Below the pieces are notes generated by a model. That model was not told the origin of the DNA and made no database searches. It was given only the letters and a program-made list of their open reading frames with translations. Below, piece by piece: positions 36,365 to 58,325 of a stretch of DNA of 64,000 nucleotides (within the stretch, counting starts at the first letter, position 1; the number at the start of each line of letters is the position of its first letter). Origin of the DNA: Thermoanaerobaculia bacterium (GTDB lineage: Bacteria > Acidobacteriota > Thermoanaerobaculia > UBA5066 > Gp7-AA6); contig DASWCZ010000079.1 of the NCBI GenBank assembly GCA_036395755.1, positions 6,363 through 70,362 on the forward strand, given 5' to 3'. The translations under genes were made by a program, and so were the position numbers.

Positions 36365-38098
36365 TCAGAAGACCGATGCCATCGAAACGGCGGGCACGAA
36401 GCCGGACGGTGACGGTCGGCTCCAACCCGGTCCGCGAAGCGCTCGGCCCGGCGTCCTGCCGGTCAGCTTTCCTCCGTCCACGACGAGCACGCCGTTGACG
36501 GCGACGAAGCGGAACCCTTCGCTGTAGCGGTTCGGGGCCTCGAACGTCGCGACGTCGCTGACCGTCCGGGGATCGAAGACCGCCAGGTCCGCGGGGAAGC
36601 CCTCCTTGACGAGACCGCGGTCGGAGAGCCCCGCGGCCTCCGCCGCAAACGACGTCATCTTCCGGATGGCCTCTTCCAGCCGCAGAATTTTCTCGTCGCG
36701 GACGTAGTGCCCGAGGATCCGCGCCGCCGAGCCCCAGCCCCGCGGGTGCGATCCCTCGTGCGAGAAAGGCCCGTCGGTCGCCTTCGCGGGCGAGTCGGTT
36801 CCGAAGGAGACGAGCGGGTGGGCGAGAGCGGCCCGGACGTCCTTCTCGTCCATGATCGAGATGATGCAGGACACGTTGGCGCGATCAGCGAGGACGAGGT
36901 CGATGAGCGCGTCGCGCGGGTCTTTTTTTTCTTCGTCGGCGATTTTCGCGATCGTCTTGCCTTCGTAAGCCTTGAGCTTGTCGGAGAGGACCGATCCGAC
37001 CATGACGCCTTCCGGACCGCCGGAGCCCAGGTACTGGTTCTCCCAGTCGGTCGTGTCGCGCGCCATGTCCTCGCGGGCGCGCTCGCGCGTCGCCGGGTCG
37101 GAGAGGCGTTTCAGGAGGGCCTCGCGTCCGCCCTCGCGGACCCAGGGGGGGAGGCAGGCGTCCAGGCCGTTGGACGCGCGGTTGTACGGGTACTGGTTCG
37201 CACTGACGTCGAGACCCTCCGTGCGCGCCGCCTCGATCTTCTTCAAGACCTCGGGCATCCGCCCCCAGTTCGGCTTGTAGGCGGTTTTCAGATGCCAGAT
37301 CTGTGTTCGCACCTTCGCGTTGCGCGCGATCGAGAAGACCTCCTCGAGCGAGGAGTCGATGCGAGAAGACTCCGACCGCTGGTGCGTGAAATAGGCGCCG
37401 CCGTGGCGCGCGGCGACTTTCGAGAGCGCCGTGAGCTCCTCGGTCGTCGAGTAGATGTTGGGAATGTACTGGAGCGATGACGAGACGCCGAGCGCGCCCT
37501 CGCGCATCGCCTGTTCCAGCAGCGACTGCATCGAGGCGATCTCGGTCGACGTCGCCGCGCGCCTCTCTTTGCCGATGACGTAACTCCGAAGCCCTCCGGA
37601 ACCGATGAACGTTCCGAGGTTGATCGCGGTGCCGCGCCTCTCCAGCGTCTTGAAGTAGCCGTCCAGGGTCCGCCAGTCCGGCCACACGCCGTATTTCTTG
37701 TAGGTGTCACGCTCCTCGTCGATCAGCCCCTGGTTGAGCGGCGCGATCGACACGCCTTCGCCCGTCACTTCGGTCGTGATCCCCTGCGTCACTTTCGACG
37801 CGGCCCGTCCGTCGACGAGGACGTTGTACTCGGACTGTCCCAGGAGATCGATGAACCCGGGCGCGACGATAAGACCGCGCGCGTCGATCCGCCGTTTCGC
37901 CGGGCGCTTCCCGAGCGGTCCGATCGCGACGATCCGACCGTCGCGGACCGCTACGTCCGCGACGAACCAGGGCGCGCCGGTTCCGTCCACGACGCGGCCA
38001 CCCTCGAAGACGAGGTCGTCGATCGCCGGAGCGCGCGGTGCGAAAAGCGCGATGGACGGCAAAGCCAGGAGGGCTCCGACCGCGATGAGCTTCTTCAT
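36365..38098 (-). CDS. Secreted amidohydrolase of the D-aminoacylase / N-acyl-D-amino-acid deacylase family
   Basis: Signal peptide MKKLIAVGALLALPSIALFA; GGRVVDGTGAPWF..DVAVRDGRIVAIG..IDARGLIVAPGFID. Confidence 0.7.
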   Translation of the reverse strand: MKKLIAVGALLALPSIALFAPRAPAIDDLVFEGGRVVDGTGAPWFVADVAVRDGRIVAIGPLGKRPAKRRIDARGLIVAPGFIDLLGQSEYNVLVDGRAASKVTQGITTEVTGEGVSIAPLNQGLIDEERDTYKKYGVWPDWRTLDGYFKTLERRGTAINLGTFIGSGGLRSYVIGKERRAATSTEIASMQSLLEQAMREGALGVSSSLQYIPNIYSTTEELTALSKVAARHGGAYFTHQRSESSRIDSSLEEVFSIARNAKVRTQIWHLKTAYKPNWGRMPEVLKKIEAARTEGLDVSANQYPYNRASNGLDACLPPWVREGGREALLKRLSDPATRERAREDMARDTTDWENQYLGSGGPEGVMVGSVLSDKLKAYEGKTIAKIADEEKKDPRDALIDLVLADRANVSCIISIMDEKDVRAALAHPLVSFGTDSPAKATDGPFSHEGSHPRGWGSAARILGHYVRDEKILRLEEAIRKMTSFAAEAAGLSDRGLVKEGFPADLAVFDPRTVSDVATFEAPNRYSEGFRFVAVNGVLVVDGGKLTGRTPGRALRGPGWSRPSPSGFVPAVSMASVF

Positions 38099-38123
38099 GG
38101 CTTCAAGTCTATGATCGCCGCCG

Positions 38124-39191
38124 ATGCAGTCCGACGCGGTTTCGCCAGGCGCCGGCGCGCGGGCGGTGGACCTCCTCGAGCGGCTGGTCGAGATCCCGTC
38201 GGTGACCGGCGCCGAGAAGCCGCTGCTCTCGTTTCTGGAAGAGCGTTACCGGGGATCGGGCTGGACCGTCGAGTCCATGGAGGTCGGTCCCGACCGGCGC
38301 AACCTCTTCATCCACCGCGGGCACCCGAGCGTCGTCCTGACGACGCACGCGGACACGGTGCCTCCGTTCTTTCCGCCGCGCCAGGAGGCGAATTCCTTGA
38401 TCGGCCGCGGAGCCTGCGACGCGAAGGCGAGCCTCGCCGCGCAGGCGATTGCCTTGGAAGAGCTGGCGCGGGACCGAGGGGGCGAGGTCGGGCTCCTCGT
38501 GCTCGTCGGAGAGGAGCGCGGTTCCGACGGCGCGCTCGCGGCCAACCGGCGCCCGCATCTCGCTCGATATTTGATCGGCGGCGAGCCGACCGGCAGCCGC
38601 TTCGTCACCGGTTCGAAAGGCTGCCTGCGGATCGAGGTCGAAGCGCGCGGCGTGTCGGGGCACTCGTCGATTCCGGAGAGCGGCCGCTCCGCGGTCGATC
38701 CGCTGCTCGACTTTCTGAACGACCTGCGCGAGCTGAAGCTGCCGGAGCATCCGGCGTTCGGGCGGACGACGATGAACATCGGCCTGATCCAGGCCGGCAC
38801 CGCGCCGAACGTCATCGCGGAGAGCGCGCGCGCCGAAGTCATTTTCCGCACGGGACAGCCGATCGAGATGCTGCTCGCGCACATCCGCCCGATGGCGCAG
38901 GGCCGGGTCGGGCTCGCCGTCGGCTACCGCTCGGATCCCGTTTCGTTCCGTCGCCCGAAGGGGGAGCCGGGTGACGTCGTCTCCTTCGCCTGCGACCTGC
39001 CGCTCCTGCCGGCGTGGGGCGAGCCAATCCTCTTCGGGCCCGGCTCGATCCGCGACGCGCACGGTGCGGAGGAAAAAGTGGAGCTCGCGGAGGTCGAGGC
39101 GGCGGTCGCGGTCTACGCCCGGCTCGTGCGGGGCCTTCTGGCGCGCGGCGACGCGTGCCTGGAACCCCGGAACACCGGGACCGTCCGATAG
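38124..39191 (+). CDS. M20-family metallopeptidase (ArgE/DapE/CPG2-like)
   Basis: LLERLVEIPSVTGAEKP, HADTV, GACDAKAS, GEERGSDG motifs. Confidence 0.75.
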   Translation: MQSDAVSPGAGARAVDLLERLVEIPSVTGAEKPLLSFLEERYRGSGWTVESMEVGPDRRNLFIHRGHPSVVLTTHADTVPPFFPPRQEANSLIGRGACDAKASLAAQAIALEELARDRGGEVGLLVLVGEERGSDGALAANRRPHLARYLIGGEPTGSRFVTGSKGCLRIEVEARGVSGHSSIPESGRSAVDPLLDFLNDLRELKLPEHPAFGRTTMNIGLIQAGTAPNVIAESARAEVIFRTGQPIEMLLAHIRPMAQGRVGLAVGYRSDPVSFRRPKGEPGDVVSFACDLPLLPAWGEPILFGPGSIRDAHGAEEKVELAEVEAAVAVYARLVRGLLARGDACLEPRNTGTVR

Positions 39192-39202
39192 CGGGAAATA
39201 GA

Positions 39203-40591
39203 ATGCCCGCGGTGAAGGTGCGTTTCGCGCTCGTCCCTCTGATGACCCTGTCCCTGCTCGTGCCGGGGCGCGCGGCCGGCCAGGAGGAGAAAAAGCTCGC
39301 GGTTCCCTACACCGAGTTCACCCTCCCGAACGGCCTCGACGTGATCCTCCACGAGGACCACAAGGTTCCGCTCGTCGCGGTCAGCGCCTGGTACCACGTC
39401 GGCTCCGCGCGCGAGAAGCCGGGTCGAACCGGGTTCGCCCACCTCTTCGAGCACATCATGTTCGAAGGGTCGGGGCACGTGGCCGAAGGGAATTTCGACA
39501 ACTGGCTCGAGTCCGCCGGCGGCGACAACAACGGCTCGACGGACAACGACCGGACGAACTACTGGGAAACGGTCCCCTCCAACGCGCTCGAGCTGGCGCT
39601 CTTCCTCGAGTCCGACCGGATGGGCTACCTGCTCGATTCGTTGAATCTCGAGAAAGTCAACGTGCAACGCGACGTGGTCAAGAACGAGCGCCGGCAGTCG
39701 TATGAGAACCGTCCATACGGAATGGCGTTCCTGAAGCTGCCCGAAGAGCTCTTCCCTCCCAACCACCCGTACCACTGGCCGGTGATCGGCTCGATGGAAG
39801 ACCTGACCGCGGCGAGCTACGAGGACGTGGTCCAGTTCTTCAAGAGCTGGTACCGGCCGAACAACACGAGCCTCGTCGTCGCGGGGGACATCGATCCCGC
39901 CGACGCGCGGCGGAAGGTCGAAAAGTGGTTCTCCGACGTTCCCCGGGGGGCGGCCGTGCCGCCGATCGCCGCGCCGCCCGCGGTCCTGACTTCGGAGAAG
40001 CGGCTGACGCTCGAGGACCGGGTCCAGCTGCCGCGTCTGTATCTCGCGTGGCTCTCCCCCCAGCTCTTCGCGCCCGGCGACGAAGCGATGAACGTCCTTT
40101 CACGCGTGCTCGCGTCCGGCAAGAACTCCCGGCTCTACAAGAGGCTCGTCTACGACCTCCAGATCGCCCAGGACGTGTCGGCGAGCCAGAACTCCGGTCC
40201 TCTCGGTTCCTCTTTCCTTCTGATCGTCACGGCCCGCGAAGGCCACGGTCTCTCCGAGATCGAGAAAGTGGTCTCCGAGGAGCTCGCGAGAGTGAAGCGG
40301 GACCCGCCTACGCCCCGCGAGCTCGAACGCGCCGTCAACCAGATCGAGGCCGCGTTCTACGGCGGGATGGAGCGCGTGGGCGGATTCGGAGGGGTTGCGG
40401 ATCAGCTGAACGCGTACGAGTTTTACGCGGGCCGGCCGGATTACTTCGCGGAGGATCTCGCGCGTTACACGTCTCTCGACACCCAGGACATCCAGGCGGC
40501 CGCAAACCGCTATCTGCGGGACGACGCGCGCCTCGTCCTCTCGGTCGTGCCGCAGGGGAAGAAGACCCTGGCCGCGGAAAAGAAGCCATGA
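39203..40591 (+). CDS. Secreted M16-family zinc peptidase (pitrilysin-like, active subunit with HxxEH)
   Basis: Signal peptide; GFAHLFEHIMFEGS inverted zincin motif. Confidence 0.8.
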   Translation: MPAVKVRFALVPLMTLSLLVPGRAAGQEEKKLAVPYTEFTLPNGLDVILHEDHKVPLVAVSAWYHVGSAREKPGRTGFAHLFEHIMFEGSGHVAEGNFDNWLESAGGDNNGSTDNDRTNYWETVPSNALELALFLESDRMGYLLDSLNLEKVNVQRDVVKNERRQSYENRPYGMAFLKLPEELFPPNHPYHWPVIGSMEDLTAASYEDVVQFFKSWYRPNNTSLVVAGDIDPADARRKVEKWFSDVPRGAAVPPIAAPPAVLTSEKRLTLEDRVQLPRLYLAWLSPQLFAPGDEAMNVLSRVLASGKNSRLYKRLVYDLQIAQDVSASQNSGPLGSSFLLIVTAREGHGLSEIEKVVSEELARVKRDPPTPRELERAVNQIEAAFYGGMERVGGFGGVADQLNAYEFYAGRPDYFAEDLARYTSLDTQDIQAAANRYLRDDARLVLSVVPQGKKTLAAEKKP

Positions 40592-42048
40592 GACGGGCGG
40601 ACGTCCCCGTCGCATTGCTCCTCCTCATTCTCGCCCTGCCCGCGTCCGGGCAGACTCCGTCGCCCGGAAAGCCCGATCGTTCGAAACCACCGGCGCTCGG
40701 ACCCGTTCGGCCGTTGAAGCTTCCGCCCGTCCAGGAGCTCCATCTTTCGAACGGCGTGCCCGTGTTCTTAATCGAGCGGCACGAGGTGCCGGTCGTGCAG
40801 GTCGACACGGTCGTCCGCGCGGGGGCGGGAAACGACCCGCTCGAGAAGCCCGGCCTCGCGAGCCTGACCGCCGACATGCTGGATGAAGGCGCCGCAGGCA
40901 AAAGCGCGCTCGAGATCTCCGACGAAGTCGACTACCTCGGCGCGGACCTGGCGTCGGAGGCGGGCTGGGACGCGACCGTCGTCGCACTCCAGGTTCCGGT
41001 CAAGCGCGTCGAGAAGGCTCTTCCGATCCTCGCCGACGTGGTGGTACATCCGACGTTCCCCGCAGGCGAGATCGAACGCGTGCGGACGGACCGCCTGACC
41101 GAGCTCCTCCAGTGGCGCGACGAGCCGCGGGCCATCGCGTCCGTCGCGTTCGCCCGCGCCCTGTACGGCCGCAAGCACCGCTATGGAACTGCGACCCTCG
41201 GGACCGAATCTTCGGTGCGCGGGTTCTCGCGCGCGGACCTAGCCGCTTTCCATTCGCAGGCCTTCCGGCCGGACAACGCCGCGATCGTCGTCGTGGGCGA
41301 CGTGACCGCCGCTTCGATCCAGCCCCGGCTCGAGAAGGCTTTCGGCGGCTGGAAATCCGCCGGCAACCGGGCCGCGGCCGAGGTCCCGGCGGCGCCGCAG
41401 ATTCCCGGGCGGGAGATCTGGATCATCGACCGGCCCGGATCGGCGCAATCCGAGATCCGCATCGGACGGATCGGGCCGCCGCGCTCGACGCCCGACTACT
41501 TTGCTCTGACGGTCATGAACACGATTCTCGGCGGCTCCTTCACTTCCCGGCTGATGCAGAACCTGCGCGAGCAGCACGGCTACGCGTATGGGGCGCGATC
41601 ATCGTTCGACTACCGTCTGTCGACCGGGCCGTTCGTGGCCGCGGCCGCCGTCCAGACCGACAAGACCGCTCCGGCGGTGACCGAGTTCTTCAAGGAGCTC
41701 GATGCGATTCGTAAGACGATCACGGACGCCGAGGTCGCGAAAGCGAAAAACTACGTTGCCCTGTCGTTCCCGTCCGAGGTGGAGACGACGGGCGACCTCG
41801 CTTCCCGGCTCGCGCAGCAGTTCATCTACCGCCTGCCCAACGACTGGCTCGAGACGTACGTCGCTCGGATCGCCGCCGTCACCGTCGCGGACGTGCGTCG
41901 CGTGGCGAGCCAGTACCTGGATCCAGAGAAGGTCGCGGTCGTCGTGGTCGGAGACCGGAGCAAGATCGAAGGGGAATTGAAAACGCTGAACCTGGGTCCG
42001 GTGAAGACGCTGTCGGTCGACGAGCTCTTCGCGGCCGAGAAGAAGTAG
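40588..42048 (+). CDS. Secreted M16-family peptidase partner subunit (no HxxEH)
   Basis: Signal peptide MRRADVPVALLLLILALPASG; M16 fold without the zinc motif; ATGA overlap with the upstream gene. Confidence 0.75.
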   Translation: MRRADVPVALLLLILALPASGQTPSPGKPDRSKPPALGPVRPLKLPPVQELHLSNGVPVFLIERHEVPVVQVDTVVRAGAGNDPLEKPGLASLTADMLDEGAAGKSALEISDEVDYLGADLASEAGWDATVVALQVPVKRVEKALPILADVVVHPTFPAGEIERVRTDRLTELLQWRDEPRAIASVAFARALYGRKHRYGTATLGTESSVRGFSRADLAAFHSQAFRPDNAAIVVVGDVTAASIQPRLEKAFGGWKSAGNRAAAEVPAAPQIPGREIWIIDRPGSAQSEIRIGRIGPPRSTPDYFALTVMNTILGGSFTSRLMQNLREQHGYAYGARSSFDYRLSTGPFVAAAAVQTDKTAPAVTEFFKELDAIRKTITDAEVAKAKNYVALSFPSEVETTGDLASRLAQQFIYRLPNDWLETYVARIAAVTVADVRRVASQYLDPEKVAVVVVGDRSKIEGELKTLNLGPVKTLSVDELFAAEKK

Positions 42049-42057
42049 CTTCGGCCG

Positions 42058-42723
42058 ATGGCGAAACCGATCGTCCGGAAACTGCTTCTTGGCGTTCTCG
42101 CCGTCATTGTCCTTCTCGTCGCCGCCTTCGTCTGGAGAATCGGGCCGAGAAACGTCTTCGGGATGCTCCGGTACGACCAGCGCCGCGAAGGGAACCTCGC
42201 GGTCGGCCATGCCGCTCCCGACGTCTCGCTCTATTCGCTCGACGGCCGAACCCGCGTGCGACTCGCGGACGAGATCGGCGTGAAGCCTCTGGTGATCATT
42301 TTCGGCAGCTACACCTGACCGCCGTTCCGGCGCTCGGTCGAGCGCGTCCAAAAAGCGTACCGGCAGTATCGGGACCGCGCCCGTTTTCTGACCGTCTACA
42401 TCAAGGAGGCGCACCCGGAAGACGAGTGGCAGATGGATTCGAACGAGAAGGAGAGCGTCTGTTACCCGCAGCCGCGCACGCTCTCGCAGCGGGTCGCGAT
42501 CGCCAACGACTTCGTGAAGCGCTTCCACTACGAAATCCCGATTGCCGTCGACGACATGGACAATCGGGCGAATCAGCTCTATGCCGGCTGGCCGGAGCGC
42601 TTCTACATCGTCGACGAGAGCGGAAAGATCGTCTTCAAGGGCAAGCCCGGACCGTTCGGGTACCACCCCGAAGAGGTGGAGTCGTGGCTCGCAAAGAGAT
42701 TTCCTCCTCCGACCGGTAGCTGA
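42058..42723 (+). CDS. Selenocysteine-containing iodothyronine-deiodinase-like (thioredoxin-fold) protein, membrane-anchored by an N-terminal TM helix; Sec encoded by in-frame TGA 42316-42318
   Basis: Track ORFs 42058..42318 and 42433..42723 are in the same frame. The joined sequence reads VIIFGSYT-U-PPFRRSVERVQKAYRQYRDRARFLTVYIKEAHPEDEW, matching the deiodinase active-site motif FGS(C/A)TUPPF and the downstream YI(D/E)EAHxxDGW region. Confidence 0.65.
42330..42345 (+). promoter_or_regulatory. SECIS-like hairpin GCGCUC-GGUC-GAGCGC; the GGUC apical loop begins 17 nt after the UGA (E. coli fdhF: 18 nt, same GGUC loop)
   Basis: Read directly; a smaller hairpin CGCCG-UUC-CGGCG sits immediately 5' of it. 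Confidence 0.5.
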
Positions 42724-42809
42724 TCGAATCGGCGACCGACGAACCGCGCTGCACAACTCACTGTGCATTCGCGAGGGCAACACCAGATTTTAGACAGCAA
42801 TTCGATGAG

Positions 42810-43220
42810 GTGGTTCCGCGTGAGGCGGGTTGCGTTACCTCCCAGCGCACTGATGTCACACTCAGGATGGAGGAGAAGATGGCAGGTCATACCGTTGTCT
42901 CGATCCGGGCGGATGGATATGGCTTTGGCATCGGTCTCATATTCTTCGGCTGTGAGTGTCTCGTTCTGGGGTATCTGATTCGGAGATCGGGCTATCTGCC
43001 CGGGGTTCTCGGCGTTCTGATGCAAGTCGCGGGCTTGTGCTACCTGACGAATAGCTTCGCGCTGCTTCTGGCCCCGAACTTCGCAAGCCGGATATTCCCC
43101 GCGATTCTCCTTCCTGCCTTTGCCGCGGAGCTGTCGCTCTGCCTTTGGCTTCTCGTGAAGGGCGTGGACGTGCCGAAGTGGGAAGAGCGAGCAAACGCGG
43201 GACGGGTTAGCGGAGGCTAG
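42810..43220 (+). pseudogene. C-terminal fragment of a DUF4386-type membrane protein in a lower-GC patch; the N-terminal half is missing
   Basis: GLIFFGCECLVLGYLIRRSGYLPGVLGVLMQVAGLCYL...ELSLCLWLLVKGV corresponds to the C-terminal half of the family. Confidence 0.4.
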
Positions 43221-50441: not shown

Positions 50442-51845
50442 TCACGCTGCGGGCAGCACTGCCCGAAAGATCGCGCCCCCTCCGGAGCGCTCTTCGACCT
50501 CGATGCGTCCGCCATGCGTCCTGGCGACCTGTTGGACGATAGCGAGGCCGAGACCGGACCCCTCCGGGTGTCTCGCGCGGGCGCTGTCGAGCCGCACGAA
50601 GCGCTCGAAGATCCGCGAGCGATCCGTCTCCGGCACGCCCGGCCCGCGGTCGCGCACCTCGAAGACCACGTCCTGTCCGCGCGTTCCCGCGACGACTTCG
50701 ACGGAAGTGCCGGGGTCGGAATAGACCGCCGCGTTCGACACGAGATTCGTGGCAAGCCGAAAGAGCGCCGCCGGGTCGCCCCGCACGCTCGCCCCGTTCT
50801 CCCGGAAAAGGTCGATCTGCACGTTCCGCAGAGCGGCGATCGCCCGGGAAGCCTGGACCGACCGCTCGACGATCGCGCCGAAGTCCACCACCTCGAACGG
50901 GGGGGTCGGCGCCGTGTCGGCGCGCGCGAGGGACAGCAGGTTCTCGGCTTCACGGGCGAGCCCTCGGGCGGTGCGCTCGATCGTCTCGAGCGACCGGCGC
51001 CGGTCTTCGGGGGCCGTTTCCGGCCGCAGCGCGTCCTGGGCCTCCCCGAGAAGCACCGCGATCGGCGTCTTCAGTTCGTGCGCGGCGTCGGCGACGAGAC
51101 GGCGCTGAGCCTGGAAGGCACCCTGCAGCCGTTCGAGGAGGGAGTTGATGACGCCGGTCAATCTCTGGAACTCGTCGCCGCCCGTGGAAACGCGAACGCG
51201 GCGCGAGAGGTCGGAAGCTTCGACGGATTCCGCCAGCCGCGTGACTTCCTCGACCGGGCGCAACGCCCGGTCGAGGACGAAAGCCAGGATCGCAGCGGTC
51301 CCGACGAAACCGATCAGCACCAGGCCGGCGAGCGTGCGGTCGAGGCGGGCCAGAGTCCTCAACGCCGGCTCGATGGATCGGAAGATCACCAGAGTCGCGC
51401 CGACCGCCTTTCCTCGGAGTCGCAACACGAGGAACCGGCAGATCCGGCGCTGACCGCTGTAAGGCTCGACGGCGGTGTACGCATCTTCCGTGCGGCCGCG
51501 ATACGGCGAGAGGCTGAAAGAGCGGCTCGGGCGGACCAGGTCGCCCGAAACGGTCAGCGCGCGCTCCCCGTCGAAGAGAATCGCGGAGTGGTTCTGGAGA
51601 CGGAATTCGAAGACGTTCGCTTCCAGACCTTTCGCGAGGGACTCCTGATAACCGAGCCCCTCCATCTCGAAGTCGGAGCCGACCGCGACGGCGAGCGTCC
51701 GCAGCTCCTCATCGATGTCGCGGAAGGTGAGCTCCCGGACCGTGGTCCGGGCCCCGAGAGCGAGGAGCAGCAGGAGAACCGCGGAGAGAGCCGCTCCCGC
51801 CAACGCGATGCGAGTGCGGGCTTTCCGCGGCCGGGGCAGGATCAC
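50442..51845 (-). CDS. Sensor histidine kinase (2 TM, periplasmic sensor domain, HAMP, HisKA, HATPase_c)
   Basis: AAHELKTPIAVL H-box; GSGLGLAIV G2 box; GTG start overlaps the response-regulator stop. Confidence 0.8.
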   Translation of the reverse strand: MILPRPRKARTRIALAGAALSAVLLLLLALGARTTVRELTFRDIDEELRTLAVAVGSDFEMEGLGYQESLAKGLEANVFEFRLQNHSAILFDGERALTVSGDLVRPSRSFSLSPYRGRTEDAYTAVEPYSGQRRICRFLVLRLRGKAVGATLVIFRSIEPALRTLARLDRTLAGLVLIGFVGTAAILAFVLDRALRPVEEVTRLAESVEASDLSRRVRVSTGGDEFQRLTGVINSLLERLQGAFQAQRRLVADAAHELKTPIAVLLGEAQDALRPETAPEDRRRSLETIERTARGLAREAENLLSLARADTAPTPPFEVVDFGAIVERSVQASRAIAALRNVQIDLFRENGASVRGDPAALFRLATNLVSNAAVYSDPGTSVEVVAGTRGQDVVFEVRDRGPGVPETDRSRIFERFVRLDSARARHPEGSGLGLAIVQQVARTHGGRIEVEERSGGGAIFRAVLPAA

Positions 51846-52507
51846 GTCAGGCGGTATCCCACTCCGCGAACGGTTTCGATTCGCGAAGAAGATCCGCACG
51901 CGTCGAGCTTCCTTCGGAGACGCGCGATCAGCACGTCGATCGTGTTGCTCATCGGCTCTTCCCGCTCGCCCCACGCCTGCTCCAGGATTTCTTCGCGGGA
52001 AAGGACGCTGCCTTCCCGGCGCATGAGCGTTTCCAGGATCGCGAACTCGCGGGCGGTCAGGGAGAGCTCGGCGCCATCGTGCCACGCCATACGGCGACCC
52101 GGGTCGAGCCGCAGGCTTCCGCAGACGAGCTGCGATGGCGCGCGACGCTCGTTGCGGCGAAGGAGAGCGTGGGCGCGCGCCACCAGAACGTCGAGGTCGA
52201 ACGGCTTGCCGAGATAGTCGTCCGCGCCGTCGGAGAGTCCCTCGACGGTCGCCGCGGGGTCGTCGAGCGCGGTCAAGATCAGGATCGAACGGCCGAACCC
52301 CTTCCGGCGCGCCCGGCGACAGACCTCCAACCCGTCGCCGTCCGGCAGGCGCCGGTCGAGCACCAGGAGGTCGTAGTCGTGGACCGAGAGGAGCTCTTCC
52401 GCTTCCGAGATCCGCGCCGCTTCGTCGCAGGCGAGGCCAGCGCGTGCTAATGTCCTCACGACCAGCGAACGGAGCCGCTGATCGTCTTCCACTACGAGCG
52501 CTCTCAC
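51842..52507 (-). CDS. OmpR-family response regulator (receiver + winged-helix)
   Basis: MRALVVEDD...DLLVLDRRLPDGDG...ADDYLGKPF; C-terminal RGVGYRLT. Confidence 0.85.
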   Translation of the reverse strand: MRALVVEDDQRLRSLVVRTLARAGLACDEAARISEAEELLSVHDYDLLVLDRRLPDGDGLEVCRRARRKGFGRSILILTALDDPAATVEGLSDGADDYLGKPFDLDVLVARAHALLRRNERRAPSQLVCGSLRLDPGRRMAWHDGAELSLTAREFAILETLMRREGSVLSREEILEQAWGEREEPMSNTIDVLIARLRRKLDACGSSSRIETVRGVGYRLT

Positions 52508-52519
52508 GAAAACGACCCC

Positions 52520-52535
52520 TTCATCCCGTGTTCAC
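52520..52535. promoter_or_regulatory. TTCAT-N6-TTCAC direct repeat (11-bp spacing) in the short divergent region between the response-regulator gene and the Omp85-family gene
   Basis: Read directly; same half-site family as 49940 and 62781. Confidence 0.3.
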
Positions 52536-52538
52536 GGT

Positions 52539-54161
52539 ATGGATTCTAGTGTGCGGTCTCTGCACGGGAACGGGGGGCGCGCCCTCGTGCTCGTCCTGGG
52601 CATTCTGTTTTCCGCGGGCATCGGGATCGCCCCGGCGTCCGCGGAGGCCCCCCCGCGCATCCGATACATCCGCATCGAGACGGAGAACGTCTTCCAGGAC
52701 GCGGAGTCTTCCTTTCTGGCCCGGGCCGCCGACGCCATCCACGGCGTCACACGGGCCGAGGTCGTCCGTCGCGAGCTGCTCTTCGCCGAGGGCGACGCGC
52801 TCGATCCGACCAAGCTCGCCGAGACCGAGAGGAACCTGCGCGCGCTCGGGCTCTTTCGGACCGTGACCATTACCTCCCAGCCGGTCGGTGAAGGGGAGGT
52901 CGACGTTCTGGTCCGAGCGCGCGACTCCTGGACCACGGAGGTCTCCGGGTCTCTCGGCCGGGCGGGCGGCAAGGTGCATTACGGCGTCTCGCTCGTGGAG
53001 AAGAACCTCTTCGGACAGGGCAAGAAAGTGTCGCTCGGGGCGGACGAACGGCCCGAGCGGTCGACGCGCGAGGTCCTCTACTCCGATCCGCAGTTCCTCG
53101 GAAGGCGCCTGTCACTCGACCTGCTCTACGACCACAACAGCGACGGCGACCGGCGCCTCTTCGATTTCACGAGCGGTTTCCGCTCCCTCGATTCCCCGGC
53201 GGGAGAGACGCTCCTGTACGACCAGGGGAGACAGCAGACCCGGCTCTACGCGGAAGGCAGCGAAATTGCGCGCTTCGCGATGCGCACCCGATCTTACGAG
53301 CTGTCGGGAGGGCAGAGGCTCTCGGCCGAAGGCGACCGACCCGTCGCGCGGCTTTTCGCCGGCTACCGCCGCGAGGAGGTGACGTTCGGACCGGTCCTTC
53401 GCGAACCCGAAGGTTTCGTCCTTCCGGACGAGCGCCGCTTCGGTTATTTCTTTGCGAGGCTCGAGCTCGCGCGACCGGTTTTTTCGGTCCAGCACGACGT
53501 GGAGTTCTTTCTGCGCGACGAGGACTTCGACCTGGGAGAAGCGCTCTCCTTCGAGCTCGGCTATTCCCCCCAGGTCTGGCGCGCGCAGGAGGCGGTCCGG
53601 GCGGCCCTCCAGTGGTCGCACGGGCTCGTCTTCCCGCGAGGATTCCTGGTCGGCTCTCTCACCGCGGCGACCCGCGCCCGTGGAGGCTCTTTCGAGAACA
53701 CGCTCGCCGAAGGACAGGTCTTCGGCGTCTGGCGCCCGGACGAGCGCTCGGCCCAGACGTTCGCCGGGCGAGTCCTTCTCTCGTGGGGAGAGCGCCTCGA
53801 CAAAGAAGTCCAGCTCGAGGCCGACGGCGCGAACGGTTTGCGCGCCTACCGGCTCCACGCTTTCGCCGGCGACCGGCGCCTGATCGTCAACCTGGAAGAC
53901 CGCATCCGGTTGACGCCCGAGCTCCTCCATCTGATCGTGCTGGGCGCGGCGGCTTTCGTGGATGCGGGCTATGCATGGCCTCCCGGAAGCCCCATGCGCC
54001 TCTCCGATCTACGCGCCGACGCCGGCGTGGGATTGCGCGTAGGCCTGCCGCGCGCGTCGAGGCACGCGCTCGTCCGCTTCGACCTCGCCTACGCCTTGCG
54101 GCCGGACCTGAAGGGCCGCCGCGGCTGGCTCGTCTCCTTCTCGAGCTCGCAGGCCTTTTGA
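52539..54161 (+). CDS. Omp85/BamA/TamA-family outer-membrane protein (signal peptide, POTRA-like N-terminus, C-terminal beta-barrel ending in Phe)
   Basis: Architecture and the terminal ...WLVSFSSSQAF. Confidence 0.6.
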   Translation: MDSSVRSLHGNGGRALVLVLGILFSAGIGIAPASAEAPPRIRYIRIETENVFQDAESSFLARAADAIHGVTRAEVVRRELLFAEGDALDPTKLAETERNLRALGLFRTVTITSQPVGEGEVDVLVRARDSWTTEVSGSLGRAGGKVHYGVSLVEKNLFGQGKKVSLGADERPERSTREVLYSDPQFLGRRLSLDLLYDHNSDGDRRLFDFTSGFRSLDSPAGETLLYDQGRQQTRLYAEGSEIARFAMRTRSYELSGGQRLSAEGDRPVARLFAGYRREEVTFGPVLREPEGFVLPDERRFGYFFARLELARPVFSVQHDVEFFLRDEDFDLGEALSFELGYSPQVWRAQEAVRAALQWSHGLVFPRGFLVGSLTAATRARGGSFENTLAEGQVFGVWRPDERSAQTFAGRVLLSWGERLDKEVQLEADGANGLRAYRLHAFAGDRRLIVNLEDRIRLTPELLHLIVLGAAAFVDAGYAWPPGSPMRLSDLRADAGVGLRVGLPRASRHALVRFDLAYALRPDLKGRRGWLVSFSSSQAF

Positions 54162-54167
54162 AGAGGT

Positions 54168-54248
54168 TGCGGGGACAGGCCCCCTGCGGGCCTGCACCCG
54201 CCGCGGTCCAACGGGGACAGGCCCTGCGGGCCTGCACCCGCCGCAGTC
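54168..54248 (+). repeat. Two tandem REP-like palindromic elements (54168-54204 and 54213-54248)
   Basis: gcggggacaggccccctgcgggcctgcacccgccgc ggtccaac ggggacaggccctgcgggcctgcacccgccgc. Confidence 0.65.
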
Positions 54249-54284
54249 CACTGCGGCGCTTCCCGCCATAAGATTTTCCTCACC

Positions 54285-56894
54285 GTGACACTCCCCACCG
54301 GGTTCCGGCTGGGCCCCTACGAGATCCTCGCTCCGCTCGGTTCGGGCGGAATGGGCGAGGTCTATCGCGCTCGCGACGCCCGGCTCGGCCGCGAGGTCGC
54401 GTTGAAGGTGCTCCCCGAGGATCTCTCGCAGGACCAGGACCGGCTCTCGCGCTTCGAGAAGGAGGCTCGGTCGGCGTCCGCGTTGAATCACCCCAACATC
54501 GTCACGATCTACGAAGTCGGTTCTCACGATTCGAACTCCTACATCGCGATGGAGCTGGTCGAGGGAAAGACGCTGCGAGAGCTCCTGTTGCCGGGTCTTC
54601 TTCCGGTGAAGCGGGCCATCCCGATTGCAACGCAGGTGGCCGAGGGCCTTGCGAGAGCGCACGAAGCGGGAATCGTTCACAGGGACTTGAAGCCCGAGAA
54701 CCTGATGGTCACCCGGGACGGCCTGGTCAAGATCCTCGACTTCGGGCTGGCCAAACTGATTTCCACGGGCGAAGGGAGCAGCGAAGTCACGAGTCTTCCG
54801 ACCGAGACGGGGACGCAGGCGGGGGTCATTCTCGGAACGGTCGGCTACATGTCGCCGGAACAGGCGAGCGGCCAGCCTGCCGACCATCGCTCCGACCAGT
54901 TCTCCTTCGGTTCGATCCTCTATGAGATCGCGTGCGGCCGGAGGGCATTTCAGAAGAAGACGACGGCGGAGACCTTGACGGCCATCATCCGGGACGAGCC
55001 GGAGCCGATCGGGAAAGTTCGACCGGAAGTCCCGTCGCCGCTCCGCTGGATCGTGGAGCGGTGTCTCGCGAAGGATCCGGAGGAACGTTACGTCTCGACC
55101 CGCGACCTCGCTCGCGACCTCGCGAGCGTTCGCGACCACGTCTCGGAGATCACGAGTGCGCCGGAGCAGGCGTTTTCTTTGGGACCGAGACCCCTTCGCC
55201 GGCTCCGGCGGTCCACGGTTCTCGCGTCGGCTCTTCTTCTGCTCCTCGTCGGTGGCGTCGCCGGATGGCTCGTCGCTTCGAATAGGATACTCAGGACCTC
55301 CGCGCCCACCTTCCAGCGCCTGACGTTCCGCTCCGCCGCGCTGGAGAACGCCCGCTTCACGCCGGACGGGCAGACGATTGTCTACGGCGCAGCGCTCGCG
55401 GGCGAGCCGCGAGGGTTGTATGCCGTTCGTCCGGAGAGTCCCGAATCGCGCTCGTTCGGCATGGACGCGGACATTCTGGCGATTTCCCGCTCCGGCGAAA
55501 TGGCACTTCTGATAAATGAAGTCGGCCCCTTCGGAACCCTGGCCCGCGTCCCGTTCGCCGGCGGAGCCCCGCGGCCGGCGATCGAGCACGTCACTTACGC
55601 CGGAGCCGATTTTTCGCCCGGCGGCGAGGAGCTCGCGATCGTTCGGGGCGTGGGCGAGCGGGTTCGGCTCGAGTTCCCCATCGGGAAAGTCCTGTACGAA
55701 GGGCAGCAGATCGGGTCGCCGCGGTTCTCCCCGGGAGGCGACCAGATCGCGTTCTTCGATTACGACGGCGGTTCGGTGATGGTCGTCGGGAGAGCCGGTG
55801 GGCCCCCGCGCGTGCTCGTCAGGGGGTTCAACCTGCCGGGCGGCGCTCCCTGCTGGTCTCTCAACGGGAAGGAGGTGTGGTTCACCGGATCGACCGAGCC
55901 GGGAAAACCGAGCGGGCTCCACGCCGTCGATCGGCGGGGAAAGCTGCGGCTGGTGGCTCAAATGCCGGGCGAGCTCGAGCTCGACGACATCTCGCGCGAC
56001 GGCCACGTGCTTCTCGCTCATCACTCGATCATCAACGGGCTGTGGGGTTCCGGCCCCGGCGATTCCGCCGAACGTGACCTGACTTGGCTTGACTGGCCCG
56101 AGCCTTTCGATCTCACTTCCGACGGGAAGGCGGTCCTGTTCAACGAGATCGGCGAAGGCGGAGGGCGAAAGGGATCCGTTTACCTCCGCAGGACGGACGG
56201 GTCTCCTGCAGTCCGATTGGGCGAGGGCCGTGGCCTCGCGCGGTCGGCCGACGGGAGCACCGTGCTGGTCAAGTTCCCCGATGCGGCGGAAGGACTTCGT
56301 CTCGTCCCGACGGGCACGGGAGAACCCCGCGCCCTGCCCTCCATCCGGTTCGAAGAAATCTCCAACGCGGTCTGGCTGCCCGACGGGAAATCGTTCCTCC
56401 TATCCGCGCGCGAGCCCGGGAAAAACTGGCGGATCCACAGGGTCGACCTGGCGGACGGAAAGCCGCGTCCGGTGAGCCCGGAGGGTGTCGCCATTCCCTA
56501 TTTCGTCACGAAAGCACTCTCCCCGGACGGGCACTGGCTGCTCGCCGCGCAGCGACCGGGCAATTTCGTTCGGTACCCGCTCGATGGCGGAACGTCGCGT
56601 CCGATCGCGGGCCTCATGGAGCGGGAAGTCCCGATCGGCTGGACGTCGGACGGCCGGACGATCTTCGTCTCCGAGGGTCTCATGGTCCCGATCGCGATCC
56701 GGGCGGTGCACCCGGTCAAAACGATCCGGCACCTGGATCCGGATACCGGCCGAAGAGGCGTCGTCAAGGAGATCCGGCCGGTGGACGCGGCCGGCAACGT
56801 GAACCGTATCGTCGTGGCCCCCGACGGTCGGGCTCTCGCGTACGCCCTGCGGCGAGGCAACTCGCAGCTCTACGTCGTCGAGGGACTCCGCTGA
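54285..56894 (+). CDS. Ser/Thr protein kinase with a TM segment and a C-terminal TolB-like PD40 beta-propeller sensor domain
   Basis: GSGGMGEVYRA...ALK, HRDLKPEN, DFGLAK, GTVGYMSPEQ; then a TM segment and PD40-type repeats. Confidence 0.8.
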   Translation: MTLPTGFRLGPYEILAPLGSGGMGEVYRARDARLGREVALKVLPEDLSQDQDRLSRFEKEARSASALNHPNIVTIYEVGSHDSNSYIAMELVEGKTLRELLLPGLLPVKRAIPIATQVAEGLARAHEAGIVHRDLKPENLMVTRDGLVKILDFGLAKLISTGEGSSEVTSLPTETGTQAGVILGTVGYMSPEQASGQPADHRSDQFSFGSILYEIACGRRAFQKKTTAETLTAIIRDEPEPIGKVRPEVPSPLRWIVERCLAKDPEERYVSTRDLARDLASVRDHVSEITSAPEQAFSLGPRPLRRLRRSTVLASALLLLLVGGVAGWLVASNRILRTSAPTFQRLTFRSAALENARFTPDGQTIVYGAALAGEPRGLYAVRPESPESRSFGMDADILAISRSGEMALLINEVGPFGTLARVPFAGGAPRPAIEHVTYAGADFSPGGEELAIVRGVGERVRLEFPIGKVLYEGQQIGSPRFSPGGDQIAFFDYDGGSVMVVGRAGGPPRVLVRGFNLPGGAPCWSLNGKEVWFTGSTEPGKPSGLHAVDRRGKLRLVAQMPGELELDDISRDGHVLLAHHSIINGLWGSGPGDSAERDLTWLDWPEPFDLTSDGKAVLFNEIGEGGGRKGSVYLRRTDGSPAVRLGEGRGLARSADGSTVLVKFPDAAEGLRLVPTGTGEPRALPSIRFEEISNAVWLPDGKSFLLSAREPGKNWRIHRVDLADGKPRPVSPEGVAIPYFVTKALSPDGHWLLAAQRPGNFVRYPLDGGTSRPIAGLMEREVPIGWTSDGRTIFVSEGLMVPIAIRAVHPVKTIRHLDPDTGRRGVVKEIRPVDAAGNVNRIVVAPDGRALAYALRRGNSQLYVVEGLR

Positions 56895-56928
56895 TTCGAT
56901 ACGATCCTGATTCTTCACGGAGGACGAA

Positions 56929-58323
56929 ATGACGATCAGTCGCCGTTCGCTTCTCGCAACGACCGGCGCGGCCGCAGCGGGCTCTCTCCTCGCGCGGACC
57001 GCCGCTGCGCAGACCGGGGTCGACGGCTCGAAGTCCGCGGCGCTCTTCCTCAAGGAGGACGACGGCCTCGCGCCCGCCACGGTCGACCGGCTGCCGCTTG
57101 AGTGGCACAAGGGCCGCGTCAAGCTCCTGCAGGAGTATCTCCAGGACCAGGGCTACGCGGGCGCGCTCCTGTCGGACCGCTGGAACATCATCTACTTCAC
57201 GGGTCTCTTTCACTCGACGACCGAGCGCCCGTTCTCGGTCTTCCTCCCCGCGGACAAGATGGCCGCGATCTGGTTCCATCCGGGCCTCGATCGCGACCTC
57301 GTCAAGAGCTGGTGGGCCACGGAAACCGAGTCCTACTTCGACTTTCAGCACGCCGAAGGCGCGTTCCCGAACCTCGGCAAGGTTCAACAGGGAGAAAAAG
57401 TCAATCTCTACGAGTGGGTCTTGAAGGGGCTGAAGAAACGGGGCTACGACGGAAAGCGGATCGCGACCGATCGCGAGCAGAACAGCCGGCAGAAGGAGTC
57501 GGCCGCGAAGATCTTCACCAAGCCGACCGAGTTCAACTCGATTTCCGAACGCTGCGAAAAGATGCGCATGGTCAAGACGCCCGAGGAGCTCGCGCTGTGG
57601 CGCCGCGCGTACCGCGTCTTCGATGAAACGCACGCGTTCGCCCGCGATCTGCTGCTCGCGAAGGGCACGGACCTGACCGACTACGAGCTCGGCCACGCGG
57701 CCGAGGAGTTCGGGACCAACCTCCTGATGAAAGGAATCCGGCGGGACGGGACGCCGCACACCGCGGTCGGCATCGAGTTGGGCGTCGGGGTCCGCGTGGG
57801 CCGGGGGACCGGTTACCCCCACCCGAACCAGTTCCACCACAACCGAATCCAGAAAGGGCAGGCTCTGCAGATCGCGGGCGGCGTCGAGATCGGCGGATGC
57901 GGTGGCGAGCTGTATCGCGCTTTCCTCCTCCATCCGTGGACCGACCACCAGAAGAAGGTCTGGACCGTCTCGCGCGACTGCTGCCTCATGCAGAAAGACC
58001 TCTCGCGCGAGGGGATCGCCTGCTCGACGGTCGCGTATCAGATCCACCAGTTCCAGGTGAAGGAAGGGATGCAGAAGTACATCTACCACCGCCCCGCGCA
58101 CGGCATGGGCATGGAGGGGCATCAGCCGCCGTATCTCGCGCTCGGCGACTACACGATGCTCGAGCCGGGGATGATCTTTTCCGTCGAGCCGGGTCTCTAC
58201 GACCCGGAGAACGGGTTCGGCGTGAACTTCAGCGACGGCTTTGCCGTTGCCACGGCCGGCAAGCCCTCGCTCCAGATGTCGCGGCTGCCGTGGTCCGAGG
58301 AGTGGTGCCTGGTCAAGTTGTAG
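56929..58323 (+). CDS. M24-family metallopeptidase (Xaa-Pro aminopeptidase/creatinase fold) with a twin-arginine signal peptide
   Basis: MTISRRSLLATTGAAAAGSLLARTAAAQ Tat signal. Pita-bread fold metal ligands (D, D, H, E, E) within a 464 aa protein. Confidence 0.7.
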   Translation: MTISRRSLLATTGAAAAGSLLARTAAAQTGVDGSKSAALFLKEDDGLAPATVDRLPLEWHKGRVKLLQEYLQDQGYAGALLSDRWNIIYFTGLFHSTTERPFSVFLPADKMAAIWFHPGLDRDLVKSWWATETESYFDFQHAEGAFPNLGKVQQGEKVNLYEWVLKGLKKRGYDGKRIATDREQNSRQKESAAKIFTKPTEFNSISERCEKMRMVKTPEELALWRRAYRVFDETHAFARDLLLAKGTDLTDYELGHAAEEFGTNLLMKGIRRDGTPHTAVGIELGVGVRVGRGTGYPHPNQFHHNRIQKGQALQIAGGVEIGGCGGELYRAFLLHPWTDHQKKVWTVSRDCCLMQKDLSREGIACSTVAYQIHQFQVKEGMQKYIYHRPAHGMGMEGHQPPYLALGDYTMLEPGMIFSVEPGLYDPENGFGVNFSDGFAVATAGKPSLQMSRLPWSEEWCLVKL

Positions 58324-58325
58324 CG

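Follow-up and report, generated by a model that had tools for sequence, protein, structure and literature searches.

The four plus-strand genes described here, which are located in a 64-kb stretch (the window) of an Acidobacteriota chromosome of Thermoanaerobaculia-like type, are likely to represent three independent units lined up one behind the other on one strand, their adjacency reflecting a rearrangement specific to one lineage and not a shared pathway. This degree of confidence applies to the explanation as a whole, comprising the packing, the decoding of an internal UGA codon, a probable read-through of all genes, and a selenoprotein that functions as a stand-alone redox enzyme. The first unit would be an M20 deacylase, which belongs with a divergently transcribed, exported amidohydrolase. 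The second would be a heterodimeric M16B zinc peptidase that is exported and consists of a catalytic HxxEH subunit and a non-catalytic subunit, and the third a membrane-anchored selenoprotein, whose UGA would be decoded as selenocysteine (Sec) through the action of a SECIS hairpin. In the window genome, all four genes would probably be read through as one transcript, while the selenoprotein gene may also have retained its own promoter. The units would have been brought together by local rearrangement within a single lineage.

The gene coordinates, checked from the open reading frames (ORFs) and the sequence, are compiled in Table 1. The M20 and M16A genes are separated by 11 bp, M16A and M16B overlap by 4 bp (ATGA), and 9 bp lie between M16B and the selenoprotein gene. 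On a public contig encoding an identical M16B protein, an independent gene call yielded identical sizes (355, 462, and 486 amino acids) for the three genes upstream. The gene identities, ORFs, and gaps given in a preliminary description of this DNA were thus reproduced exactly by the ORFs, the Pfam domains, and the independent gene call; all four proteins are members of known families.

Table 1. Features of the locus, with positions in the window.
Feature	Position	Strand	Basis
Exported amidohydrolase (D-aminoacylase-like, Amidohydro_3)	36365..38098	-	Pfam PF07969, E = 1.4e-19
Divergent intergenic region, 25 bp, two overlapping -10-like hexamers	38099..38123		Read from sequence
M20-family (ArgE/DapE-type) deacylase, 355 aa	38124..39191	+	Pfam M20 and M20_dimer
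M16B-type zinc peptidase, active subunit (M16A), 462 aa, ATG at 39203	39203..40591	+	Pfam, PDB, motifs
M16B-type inactive subunit (M16B), 486 aa	40588..42048	+	Pfam, PDB, HxxEH absent
TAGCTT, -10-like hexamer, candidate leaderless-type promoter	42046..42051	+	TANNNT enrichment in homologous loci
Deiodinase-family selenoprotein, 221 aa	42058..42723	+	PF00837
UGA selenocysteine codon, residue 87	42316..42318	+	TGA in 81/81 homologues
Bacterial SECIS-type hairpin GCGCUC-GGUC-GAGCGC	42330..42345	+	Covariation across 78 distinct sequences
ORF matching the C-terminal half of DUF4386 only, likely gene remnant	42810..43220	+	Pfam

The gene of the third unit has an internal TGA codon. This codon occupies the catalytic position in all 81 homologous genes compared, and the conserved coding sequence runs on in frame behind it. 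The hairpin follows the UGA after a spacer of 11 nt and consists of a 6-bp stem closed by a GGUC loop. Across 78 distinct sequences, 95.5% of the cells in the stem are paired, compared with 22-72% in slid controls; 19 double-change cells are found at two of the pairs, a level that was reached in 0 of 500 shuffles. The compensatory changes are G-C to C-G at synonymous Arg codons and U-A to G-C. Searches against Rfam returned nothing relevant, neither for the whole window at gathering thresholds nor for positions 42000-42800 at E-values up to 10, and when the 35 or 60 nt behind the UGA were folded as a single sequence, the z-scores stayed near 0 and the hairpin was not picked out; it is recognized only by the comparative count. 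Were translation to terminate at the TGA at 42316, the locus would amount to a disrupted gene or to a pair of small ORFs. The missing Rfam match and the unexceptional stability of the single-sequence fold would agree with this, as would the fact that most database entries of the family are fragments of about 122 amino acids that begin after the TGA. The idea retains next to no probability, however, given that the codon aligns with the Sec or Cys of deiodinases in 81 out of 81 cases, that both halves of the gene are conserved in one frame, that the hairpin carries its compensatory changes at synonymous sites, and that homologues with Cys in place of Sec (P0001 and P0003-P0006) include full-length proteins. 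By this comparison of gene sequences, the TGA at 42316-42318 is a real selenocysteine codon, and the Sec assignment made earlier stands. An alternative genetic code in which TGA specifies Trp or Gly was rejected; M16A itself ends in TGA (40589-40591). The 64-kb window holds no tRNA genes. A warning for genome annotation is that automatic procedures split these selenoprotein genes at the UGA.

The selenoprotein matches the T4_deiodinase family PF00837 with E = 7.5e-39 and 133.9 bits, well over the cut-off of 27, along profile positions 70-236 of 237. With the NCBIfam model NF038285 ("deiodinase family protein", the bacterial type of 347 amino acids) it reaches 202.5 bits, under the cut-off of 250; the match is limited to profile positions 177-340 of 347, and the N-terminal domain of that model is absent. 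A total of 563 homologues were found, and 402 loci in species-representative genomes. Structural matches in the PDB are 9H48 (Dio2, E = 5.6e-25) and 4TR3 (Dio3, E = 1.5e-24), both crystallized as Cys variants. The active site S84-Y85-T86-U87-P88-P89-F90 (FGSYT-U-PPFRR) has as its aligned counterparts FGSATCPPF in Dio2 and FGSCTCPPF in Dio3. Over the catalytic domain, the identity amounts to about 39% by a hand count from the alignment with Dio2. The residues Y114, E117, A118, H119, D122, and W124 (Y-x-x-E-A-H-x-x-D-x-W) are invariant or nearly so in the family alignment. Y114, E117, H119, and W124 are equivalent to Tyr197, Glu200, His202, and Trp207 of Dio3, the roles of which, among others, have been described (PMC7506546), and R145 is equivalent to Arg225. 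As in Dio2, no Cys adjoins the Sec residue (Tyr85 being found there). The single N-terminal transmembrane helix of the deiodinases is likewise predicted, from hydrophobicity only, as one strongly hydrophobic segment at residues 9-26 with positive charges on both sides. In contrast, Dio3 His219 and Arg275, which take part in substrate binding and a hydrogen-bond network, are absent, the aligned residues being Pro139 and Pro197, with K196 at the position of the Dio1 Arg. Further differences are a conserved Cys135, which is not found in Dio, and a SECIS element of the bacterial type within the coding region. The substrates are not expected to include thyroid hormones.

Bacterial deiodinase-like selenoproteins were described in 2005 from the Sargasso Sea by Zhang, Fomenko, and Gladyshev, who proposed a redox role (PMC1088965). 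With that family the present protein shares PF00837 membership, a UGA-encoded Sec, a bacterial SECIS element with a G in a small apical loop, the existence of both Sec and Cys forms, and the presumed redox function. The family motif is given as UxxC in reviews from 2022 and 2026, whereas the present protein has U-P-P-F as in animal deiodinases, with no Cys three residues on; it also differs in its N-terminal membrane anchor and in being of a form that is concentrated in soil Thermoanaerobaculia and not in marine bacteria. In two loci of other Acidobacteria, homologues of the Cys form lie amid two or three AhpD/CMD-like "peroxidase-related" genes; none of these were seen near the Sec-form loci or in the window. 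AhpC/AhpD-type peroxiredoxin systems offer a working analogy only, which extends to the thioredoxin/peroxiredoxin-like fold, the single peroxidatic-type Sec or Cys, and the AhpD/CMD-like genes flanking the Cys-form homologues. It ends where the Sec forms have no CMD genes nearby, and any peroxidase activity of family members would be hypothetical. From the Dio/peroxiredoxin-like fold, the S-x-T-U and Y-x-x-E-A-H-x-x-D-x-W motifs, R145, the two related Cys-form loci, and the literature we infer a redox role, the protein most likely being a stand-alone, membrane-anchored selenol redox enzyme. It would act alone at the membrane by peroxiredoxin-like chemistry through selenenic acid or selenenyl intermediates, which would be resolved by a thiol, provided either by the conserved Cys135 or by an external reductant.

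Both proteins of the second unit contain the Pfam domains Peptidase_M16 and M16_C. The HxxEH motif is confined to the first of them (HLFEH at residues 80-84, together with E162), which has 3AMJ_C, a "zinc peptidase active subunit", among its best PDB matches (E = 8.9e-52); the second protein lacks HxxEH and matches best the "zinc peptidase inactive subunit" 3AMJ_B (E = 8.5e-52). The active/inactive pair postulated in the preliminary description is therefore confirmed by the motif in one subunit and the split of the PDB matches. The signal peptides of the M16 proteins and the membrane anchor of the selenoprotein, also postulated there, find their counterpart in hydrophobic segments, signal-peptide-like N-termini being recognized in both M16 proteins by hydrophobicity only. 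The closest known system is SPH2681/SPH2682 of Sphingomonas sp. A1 (3AMJ), with the similar TTHA1264/1265, where two adjacent genes encode proteins of about 50 kDa and HxxEH plus the distal Glu are likewise restricted to one of two subunits. M16B heterodimers of this type have been described (PMC12731061), and the enzymes are general oligopeptide-degrading "peptidasomes". The present pair differs in the export-signal-like N-termini of both subunits, and its heterodimeric state is predicted from the genes.

Of the first unit, the M20 protein comprises the Pfam domains Peptidase_M20 and M20_dimer. Its scores against the specific NCBIfam equivalogs and subfamilies are all far under the cut-offs (the best being 123 bits versus 289), so that the assignment is generic, at the superfamily level. 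A hydrophobicity scan detected no hydrophobic N-terminus or export signal in this protein. The amidohydrolase possesses an N-terminal hydrophobic segment and reaches 226 bits with NCBIfam NF006560, under the cut-off of that model. The two genes co-occur in about 22 of 80 loci, and by this distribution the amidohydrolase/M20 pair is a unit that is conserved more widely. Between them, TATGAT (38110-38115) is situated 8 nt before the ATG of M20, and the ATG of the amidohydrolase is preceded at a distance of 7 nt by TAGACT, read as the reverse complement of 38106-38111; a promoter role of both hexamers would be inferred from their sequence and position. TANNNT at 5-10 nt before the start is seen at several other genes of the window, too.

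Gene order was compared in the 80 most similar of the 402 genomic loci, mostly from Thermoanaerobaculia, by means of a crude gene caller and tblastn. The M16 pair is found directly upstream of the selenoprotein gene in nine of 13 genomes, all within one shallow clade (the window, L001-4, L006, L008, L012, and L018). In the other four members it is separated or gone: the junction is occupied in L007 by a HicAB-like toxin-antitoxin pair and, in both L010 and L025, by a beta-propeller gene on the minus strand, while L005 has lost the M16 pair, its selenoprotein being 84% identical to that of the window with TGA and hairpin retained. No M16 remnants were found in the gaps of L005 and L007, the former consisting of repeats and a small ORF. 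In L002, the closest relative, a minus-strand gene interrupts the M20/M16 junction, and in L001 an additional small ORF does so. An upstream M16 pair is missing from all of the other 67 loci, about 55 of which extend at least 1.8 kb upstream. Their neighbours are a convergent DUF2127 gene downstream in about 45 and, besides, genes for an FmdA/AmdA-like amidase, M24, Nramp, a histidine kinase, and Ser/Thr kinases; loci of Planctomycetota, Polyangiaceae, and Holophagales have none of these neighbours in common. The order expected to be conserved in related genomes is thus restricted to nine members of a single clade, four others having it broken or lost.

The preliminary description had coupled the peptidases functionally to the selenoprotein. 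The exported M16 heterodimer and the selenoprotein would then share a modified, for example halogenated, peptide or amino acid substrate, the breakdown of which would be finished by M20 in the cytoplasm. The very short gaps with one overlap are compatible with such a module, and the arrangement has been kept in nine genomes with selenoproteins down to 73% identical to that of the window. Further points in its favour are the paralogous M16 pair that follows the selenoprotein gene at a distance of 2.3-2.7 kb in L028, L042, and L049, the other clades in which a same-strand exported hydrolase (FmdA-like or M24) lies directly upstream, sometimes with a 4-bp overlap, and the retention of most deiodinase hallmarks, including the equivalent of His202. 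We nevertheless regard a module as quite improbable. The junctions are broken in L005, L007, L010, and L025 (and that of M20 in L001 and L002), whereas the selenoprotein gene, its UGA, and the hairpin stay intact; the 67 further loci do without an upstream M16 pair, the distant phyla without any common neighbour, and the selenoprotein gene bears a promoter-like signal of its own. The equivalents of Dio3 His219 and Arg275 are Pro, and literature searches on Thermoanaerobaculia and selenocysteine and on operons of M16 and selenoprotein genes found nothing relevant, linking no M16 peptidase with selenoproteins. With the relatives largely devoid of synteny, the functional coupling is unsupported, nor does anything in the analysis support a halogenated-peptide substrate. 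That the arrangement is not described as a module would follow from its not being a conserved one.

Same-strand genes for exported amide-bond hydrolases (M16, FmdA-like, M24) nonetheless occur upstream in three different clades, a recurrence that might be more than coincidence. The selenoprotein might accordingly be conceived as a reductive dehalogenase, or another envelope selenol enzyme, acting on the products of exported amide-bond hydrolases and repeatedly recruited beside their genes, to which we assign a very low probability. The hydrolases concerned would be the M16 pair of the window, the paralogous M16 pair (L028, L042, and L049), the FmdA-like amidase, and M24, and the window would represent one variant of a loose, recurring partnership between hydrolases and Sec-containing deiodinase-like proteins. 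A true coupling would have provided the first functional handle on the deiodinase-like selenoproteins of bacteria described in 2005. No such handle is obtained here, because the comparative evidence points to a lineage-specific accident of gene packing. What is gained is a well-supported collection of 81 deiodinase-family genes with Sec from Thermoanaerobaculia and relatives, with animal-type U-P-P-F and a covarying SECIS element, and a map of their neighbours that covers those shared more widely (DUF2127, FmdA-like amidase) as well as the AhpD/CMD-like redox neighbours of the Cys forms.

Independent units may still be transcribed together. A scan for sigma-70 promoter and terminator consensus sequences over 36-45 kb, which is uninformative for the host phylum, revealed neither a plus-strand promoter nor a terminator between the genes, and folding of the sequence after the selenoprotein stop codon showed no clear intrinsic terminator. 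As the intervals measure 11, -4, and 9 bp and a terminator is lacking, a single transcript is probable, and co-transcription of the four genes in the window genome is plausible from the sequence. Real translational coupling, maintained by selection in this clade, could be the reason for the 9-bp gap and for the gaps of -4 to 8 bp in L003, L004, L006, and L008. As a candidate promoter is present in TAGCTT, the earlier wording "almost certainly co-transcribed" is too strong. With start codons set by a heuristic in the other loci, 30 of 73 homologous loci have a TANNNT hexamer whose end lies 6-10 nt ahead of the start, in 16 of them at exactly 6 nt, with about 0-1 occurrences at each other position. 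The TAGCTT of the window sits at this modal spacing of 6 nt before the selenoprotein ATG and includes the M16B stop codon.

The selenoprotein gene could hence form a separate leaderless or near-leaderless unit starting from TAGCTT, with the operon reduced to three genes or to two plus one. Besides the enrichment and the modal spacing, GATAAT at 8-21 nt upstream in L001, L002, L010, L018, and L025 and the same signature at the M20 and amidohydrolase genes speak for such a unit. We consider it rather unlikely, though: no terminator-like structure follows M16B, so that transcription is still expected to read through; the "TA" comes for free with the stop codon TAG, and TAGCTT could be a chance match; the hexamer is absent from L003, L004, L006, and L008, which are tightly gapped as well; a -35-like element is missing; and the starts underlying the enrichment were assigned heuristically. 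Downstream of the selenoprotein gene, the segment reaching to DAGK varies among close relatives, and the DUF4386 ORF, the Pfam match of which spans profile positions 117-210 of 210, is situated in this variable region.

The four open reading frames lie where the preliminary description had placed them, and its gene layout is confirmed, with coordinates, gaps and Pfam domains in agreement, since ORFs, public gene calls, domains, motifs and hydrophobic segments all fit. The three upstream gene calls are matched on a public contig that encodes an identical M16B protein; the selenoprotein ORF contains one in-frame TGA and is otherwise open over its full length. Peptidase_M20 and M20_dimer domains are found in the M20 gene, Peptidase_M16 and M16_C domains in either M16 gene (M16A and M16B, the first and the second), and a T4_deiodinase domain (PF00837, E = 7.5e-39) in the fourth gene. 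As had been claimed from the sequence, both M16 proteins have hydrophobic N-termini of the signal-peptide type, which are also found in the divergent upstream amidohydrolase, and the selenoprotein has a single, very hydrophobic segment (residues 9-26). No such N-terminal segment is found in the M20 protein.

Positions of the features discussed, in the window or in the homologous selenoprotein loci compared with it (L numbers)
Feature	Position or locus	Strand	Length	Remark
M20 gene	38124-39191	+	355 aa	11 bp to next gene
M16A	39203-40591	+	462 aa	next gene at -4 bp (ATGA overlap)
M16B	40588-42048	+	486 aa	9 bp to next gene
Selenoprotein gene	42058-42723	+	221 aa	last of four
In-frame TGA	42316-42318			within FGSYT-U-PPFRR
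Hairpin GCGCUC-GGUC-GAGCGC	42330-42345			begins 11 nt 3' of UGA
Amidohydrolase/M20 intergenic interval	38099-38123		25 bp	TATGAT and TAGACT
Hexamer TAGCTT	42046-42051			overlaps M16B stop codon
ORF with partial DUF4386 match	42810-43220			profile positions 117-210 of 210
Histidine kinase gene	50451-51974	-		neighbour type of other clades, downstream in window
Ser/Thr kinase genes	54285-56891; from 58325			neighbour type of other clades, downstream in window
M24 peptidase gene	57028-58320			80% identity to M24 directly preceding selenoprotein gene in L037
M16B adjoining selenoprotein gene	window, L001, L002, L003, L004, L006, L008, L012, L018			gaps 9, 34, 35, -4, -4, 3, 8, about 95 and 34 bp, in this order
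HicB/HicA-like toxin-antitoxin pair	L007:560-1075			within M16B-selenoprotein junction
Beta-propeller-repeat gene	L010, L025	-		within M16B-selenoprotein junction
M16 genes absent	L005			M20, then 339 bp, then selenoprotein gene
Repeat copies and small ORF	L005:2405-2745			the 339-bp gap
DUF2127 gene, example	L019:8654-9121	-		convergent
IS200-like Y1 transposase gene	L011, L021, L022, L026, L030 (7016-7981), L034, L041, L044, L050, L055, L059, L070			between FmdA-like and selenoprotein genes
Loci of Cys-form homologues	L082:4622-6690; L084:4795-7302			other Acidobacteria

The M16 genes encode an active/inactive pair, as had been stated: the HxxEH motif is restricted to the M16A protein (HLFEH, residues 80-84, with Glu162 downstream). 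Against the PDB, the best match of M16A is 4NNZ from Pseudomonas, a 'probable zinc protease' (E = 2e-59), followed by 3AMJ_C (E = 8.9e-52), which is the 'active subunit' of the M16B peptidase from Sphingomonas sp. A1; the best match of M16B is the 'inactive subunit' of this peptidase, 3AMJ_B (E = 8.5e-52). A class of M16B-type heterodimers in which a single subunit carries both HxxEH and the distal Glu has been described (PMC12731061), and, as in the Sphingomonas sp. A1 peptidase, both elements occur in only one member of the window pair, M16A. For the M20 protein every specific NCBIfam model scores far under its cut-off, and by sequence it is assignable to the ArgE/DapE superfamily only.

Comparative evidence identifies the TGA of the fourth gene as a genuine selenocysteine codon. 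It is aligned to the Sec position of vertebrate Dio2 and Dio3 (crystallised as Cys) and is present in 81 of 81 genes, i.e., in the window and in the best 80 of the 402 loci that were obtained by scanning a single genome for each species. These 80 loci belong mostly to Thermoanaerobaculia and other Acidobacteriota, with a few from Planctomycetota and Holophagales and one from Polyangiaceae. In the hairpin that follows the codon, 95.5% of cells are paired over 78 distinct sequences, and only 22-72% in control registers slid along the alignment. Two pairs show compensatory changes, one from G-C to C-G in Arg codons that stay synonymous and one from U-A to G-C. Double-change cells number 19, and the observed values are reached by none of 500 shuffles. 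The hairpin, which is missed by single-sequence folding and by an Rfam search, agrees with the bacterial SECIS features of the 2005 family description, namely G within an apical loop of small size (PMC1088965). Among 563 homologues from the protein search the majority are fragments of about 122 aa starting just past the TGA, the usual form of truncation of selenoprotein genes by gene callers; a few full-length homologues carry Cys in place of Sec. In public annotation almost all of these genes are split at the UGA, the pieces of about 122 aa being entered as 'type I thyroxine 5'-deiodinase' or as 'hypothetical protein', and two entries (P0002 and P0008) have W at the Sec position, presumably from TGA read as Trp.

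With the catalytic domain of Dio2 the selenoprotein shares about 39% identity (our count from the alignment). It retains, with Dio3 equivalents in brackets, Ser84 (Ser167), Thr86 (Thr169), Sec87 (Sec170), Pro88-Pro89 (Pro171-172), Tyr114 (Tyr197), Glu117 (Glu200), His119 (His202), Trp124 (Trp207) and Arg145 (Arg225), as well as Asp122; the roles of the Dio3 residues used for comparison are those in PMC7506546. The positions of Dio3 His219 and Arg275 are both occupied by Pro, and the protein has a conserved Cys135, which deiodinases lack. Bacterial deiodinase-like selenoproteins were first described in 2005, when a redox role was proposed (PMC1088965), and are included in reviews of 2022 and 2026; the family motif in these reviews is UxxC, whereas the window protein has UPPF, as in animals. 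Every component of the four-gene stretch belongs to a known family.

The gene content and a probable co-transcription can be retained from the preliminary description, but its further claim of a functional module composed of M20, the M16 pair and the selenoprotein finds no support: judged from gene order, this module lacks conservation, and it has been disrupted several times while the selenoprotein persisted. The conservation of the order in relatives, which had been named as a check, was followed by tblastn in the 80 loci (the most similar of 402, with heuristic gene calling), using the window proteins and representative neighbours as queries. Among the 80 loci and the window, an M16 pair directly 5' of the selenoprotein gene is confined to one shallow clade of 13 genomes, and outside this clade none is found upstream of that gene. 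Even within the clade the M16B-selenoprotein junction is interrupted or lost, yet TGA and hairpin are retained in all 13 genomes; the selenoprotein of L005, where the M16 genes are absent, is 84% identical to that of the window. The M20-M16 junction is conserved no better: a minus-strand glycosyltransferase-like gene splits M20 from the M16 pair in L002, the closest relative among the 80 loci, and in L001 an extra 102-aa ORF separates M20 from M16A. The same small ORF is found in the gap of L005, where a GGGGGACC...GATTACTCGGACA repeat is also present three times.

Co-transcription is favoured by the short gene spacing by itself. A sequence scan detects no terminator-like site between the four genes, and in this genome a single transcript probably runs through all of them. 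The selenoprotein gene may also have its own promoter in the window. Of the 73 loci in which the start could be usefully assigned, 30 have a -10-like hexamer, TANNNT, that ends 6-10 nt ahead of the selenoprotein gene, and in 16 of these the spacing is exactly 6 nt; at other upstream positions the hexamer is found in 0-1 loci each. In five more loci GATAAT is present at a distance of 8-21 nt upstream, with M16B adjoining in L001, L002 and L018 and not adjoining in L010 and L025. This pattern suggests a promoter giving a leaderless or very-short-leader, SECIS-containing mRNA, so that the selenoprotein gene would normally be its own transcription unit. TAGCTT in the window has the modal 6-nt spacing to the selenoprotein start and may be functional or a chance match. 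The amidohydrolase (-) and M20 (+) start codons form a very compact divergent pair, and the -10-like hexamers between them overlap on opposite strands, each 7-8 nt from its own start codon. The same hexamer signature is seen at several more window genes.

The commonest neighbour of the selenoprotein gene among the 80 loci is a convergent gene for a DUF2127 membrane protein, located just 3' of it in about 45 loci of the range L009-L080. An exported FmdA/AmdA-like (acetamidase/formamidase-like) gene lies upstream in about 27 loci, directly adjoining in about 14 and in some with a 4-bp overlap; genes of this family frequently accompany the DUF2127 gene, before or after it. Both neighbours have been lost from the window's clade. 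In about 13 loci an IS200-like Y1 transposase gene (RayT-like, PF01797) intervenes between the FmdA-like and selenoprotein genes, and there the motif AGACCTGACCCC, which may be a REP-type element, is repeatedly found directly 5' of the selenoprotein start. The amidohydrolase/M20 pair occurs 2.7-5.4 kb upstream in about 10 loci outside the window's clade, with a minus-strand histidine kinase gene, with or without Nramp, intervening, and an M24 peptidase gene is found upstream in a few. None of these neighbours is found in the loci of other phyla (62-65% identical). In L028, L042 and L049 a paralogous M16 pair (31% identity) lies 2.3-2.7 kb downstream, past DUF2127, which would be at most a second independent association.

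We propose that three independent functions are packed together rather than one pathway. The first would be that of a cytoplasmic deacylase, M20, tied to the exported amidohydrolase; the second that of a general exported M16B-type oligopeptidase; and the third that of a membrane-anchored selenol enzyme acting on its own. For this enzyme, peroxiredoxin-like redox chemistry is the best-supported working model, based on the fold, the literature and two Cys-form homologues situated among AhpD/CMD-like genes. Sec87 would be oxidised or would attack an electrophile, and its regeneration would proceed via a selenenylsulfide with a thiol, for which Cys135 is a candidate. The two Cys forms, 55-57% identical, have on their flanks two or three 'peroxidase-related' genes of the CMD/AhpD-like kind (DCxxCQxxH) and a class-V aminotransferase gene; near the Sec-form loci no AhpD/CMD-like genes are found. 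Dehalogenation would be a less likely activity of the selenoprotein and stays a candidate because most deiodinase hallmarks are kept.

Orthologues of the neighbours seen in other clades are located 8-16 kb downstream in the window (50451-59140), pointing to a local rearrangement of the region. The ORF behind the selenoprotein gene matches the C-terminal half of DUF4386 only and is probably a truncated remnant. Close relatives differ in the distance between the selenoprotein gene and a DAGK-like gene, which ranges between 85 bp and 3 kb, and around this ORF the G+C content falls to 0.63.
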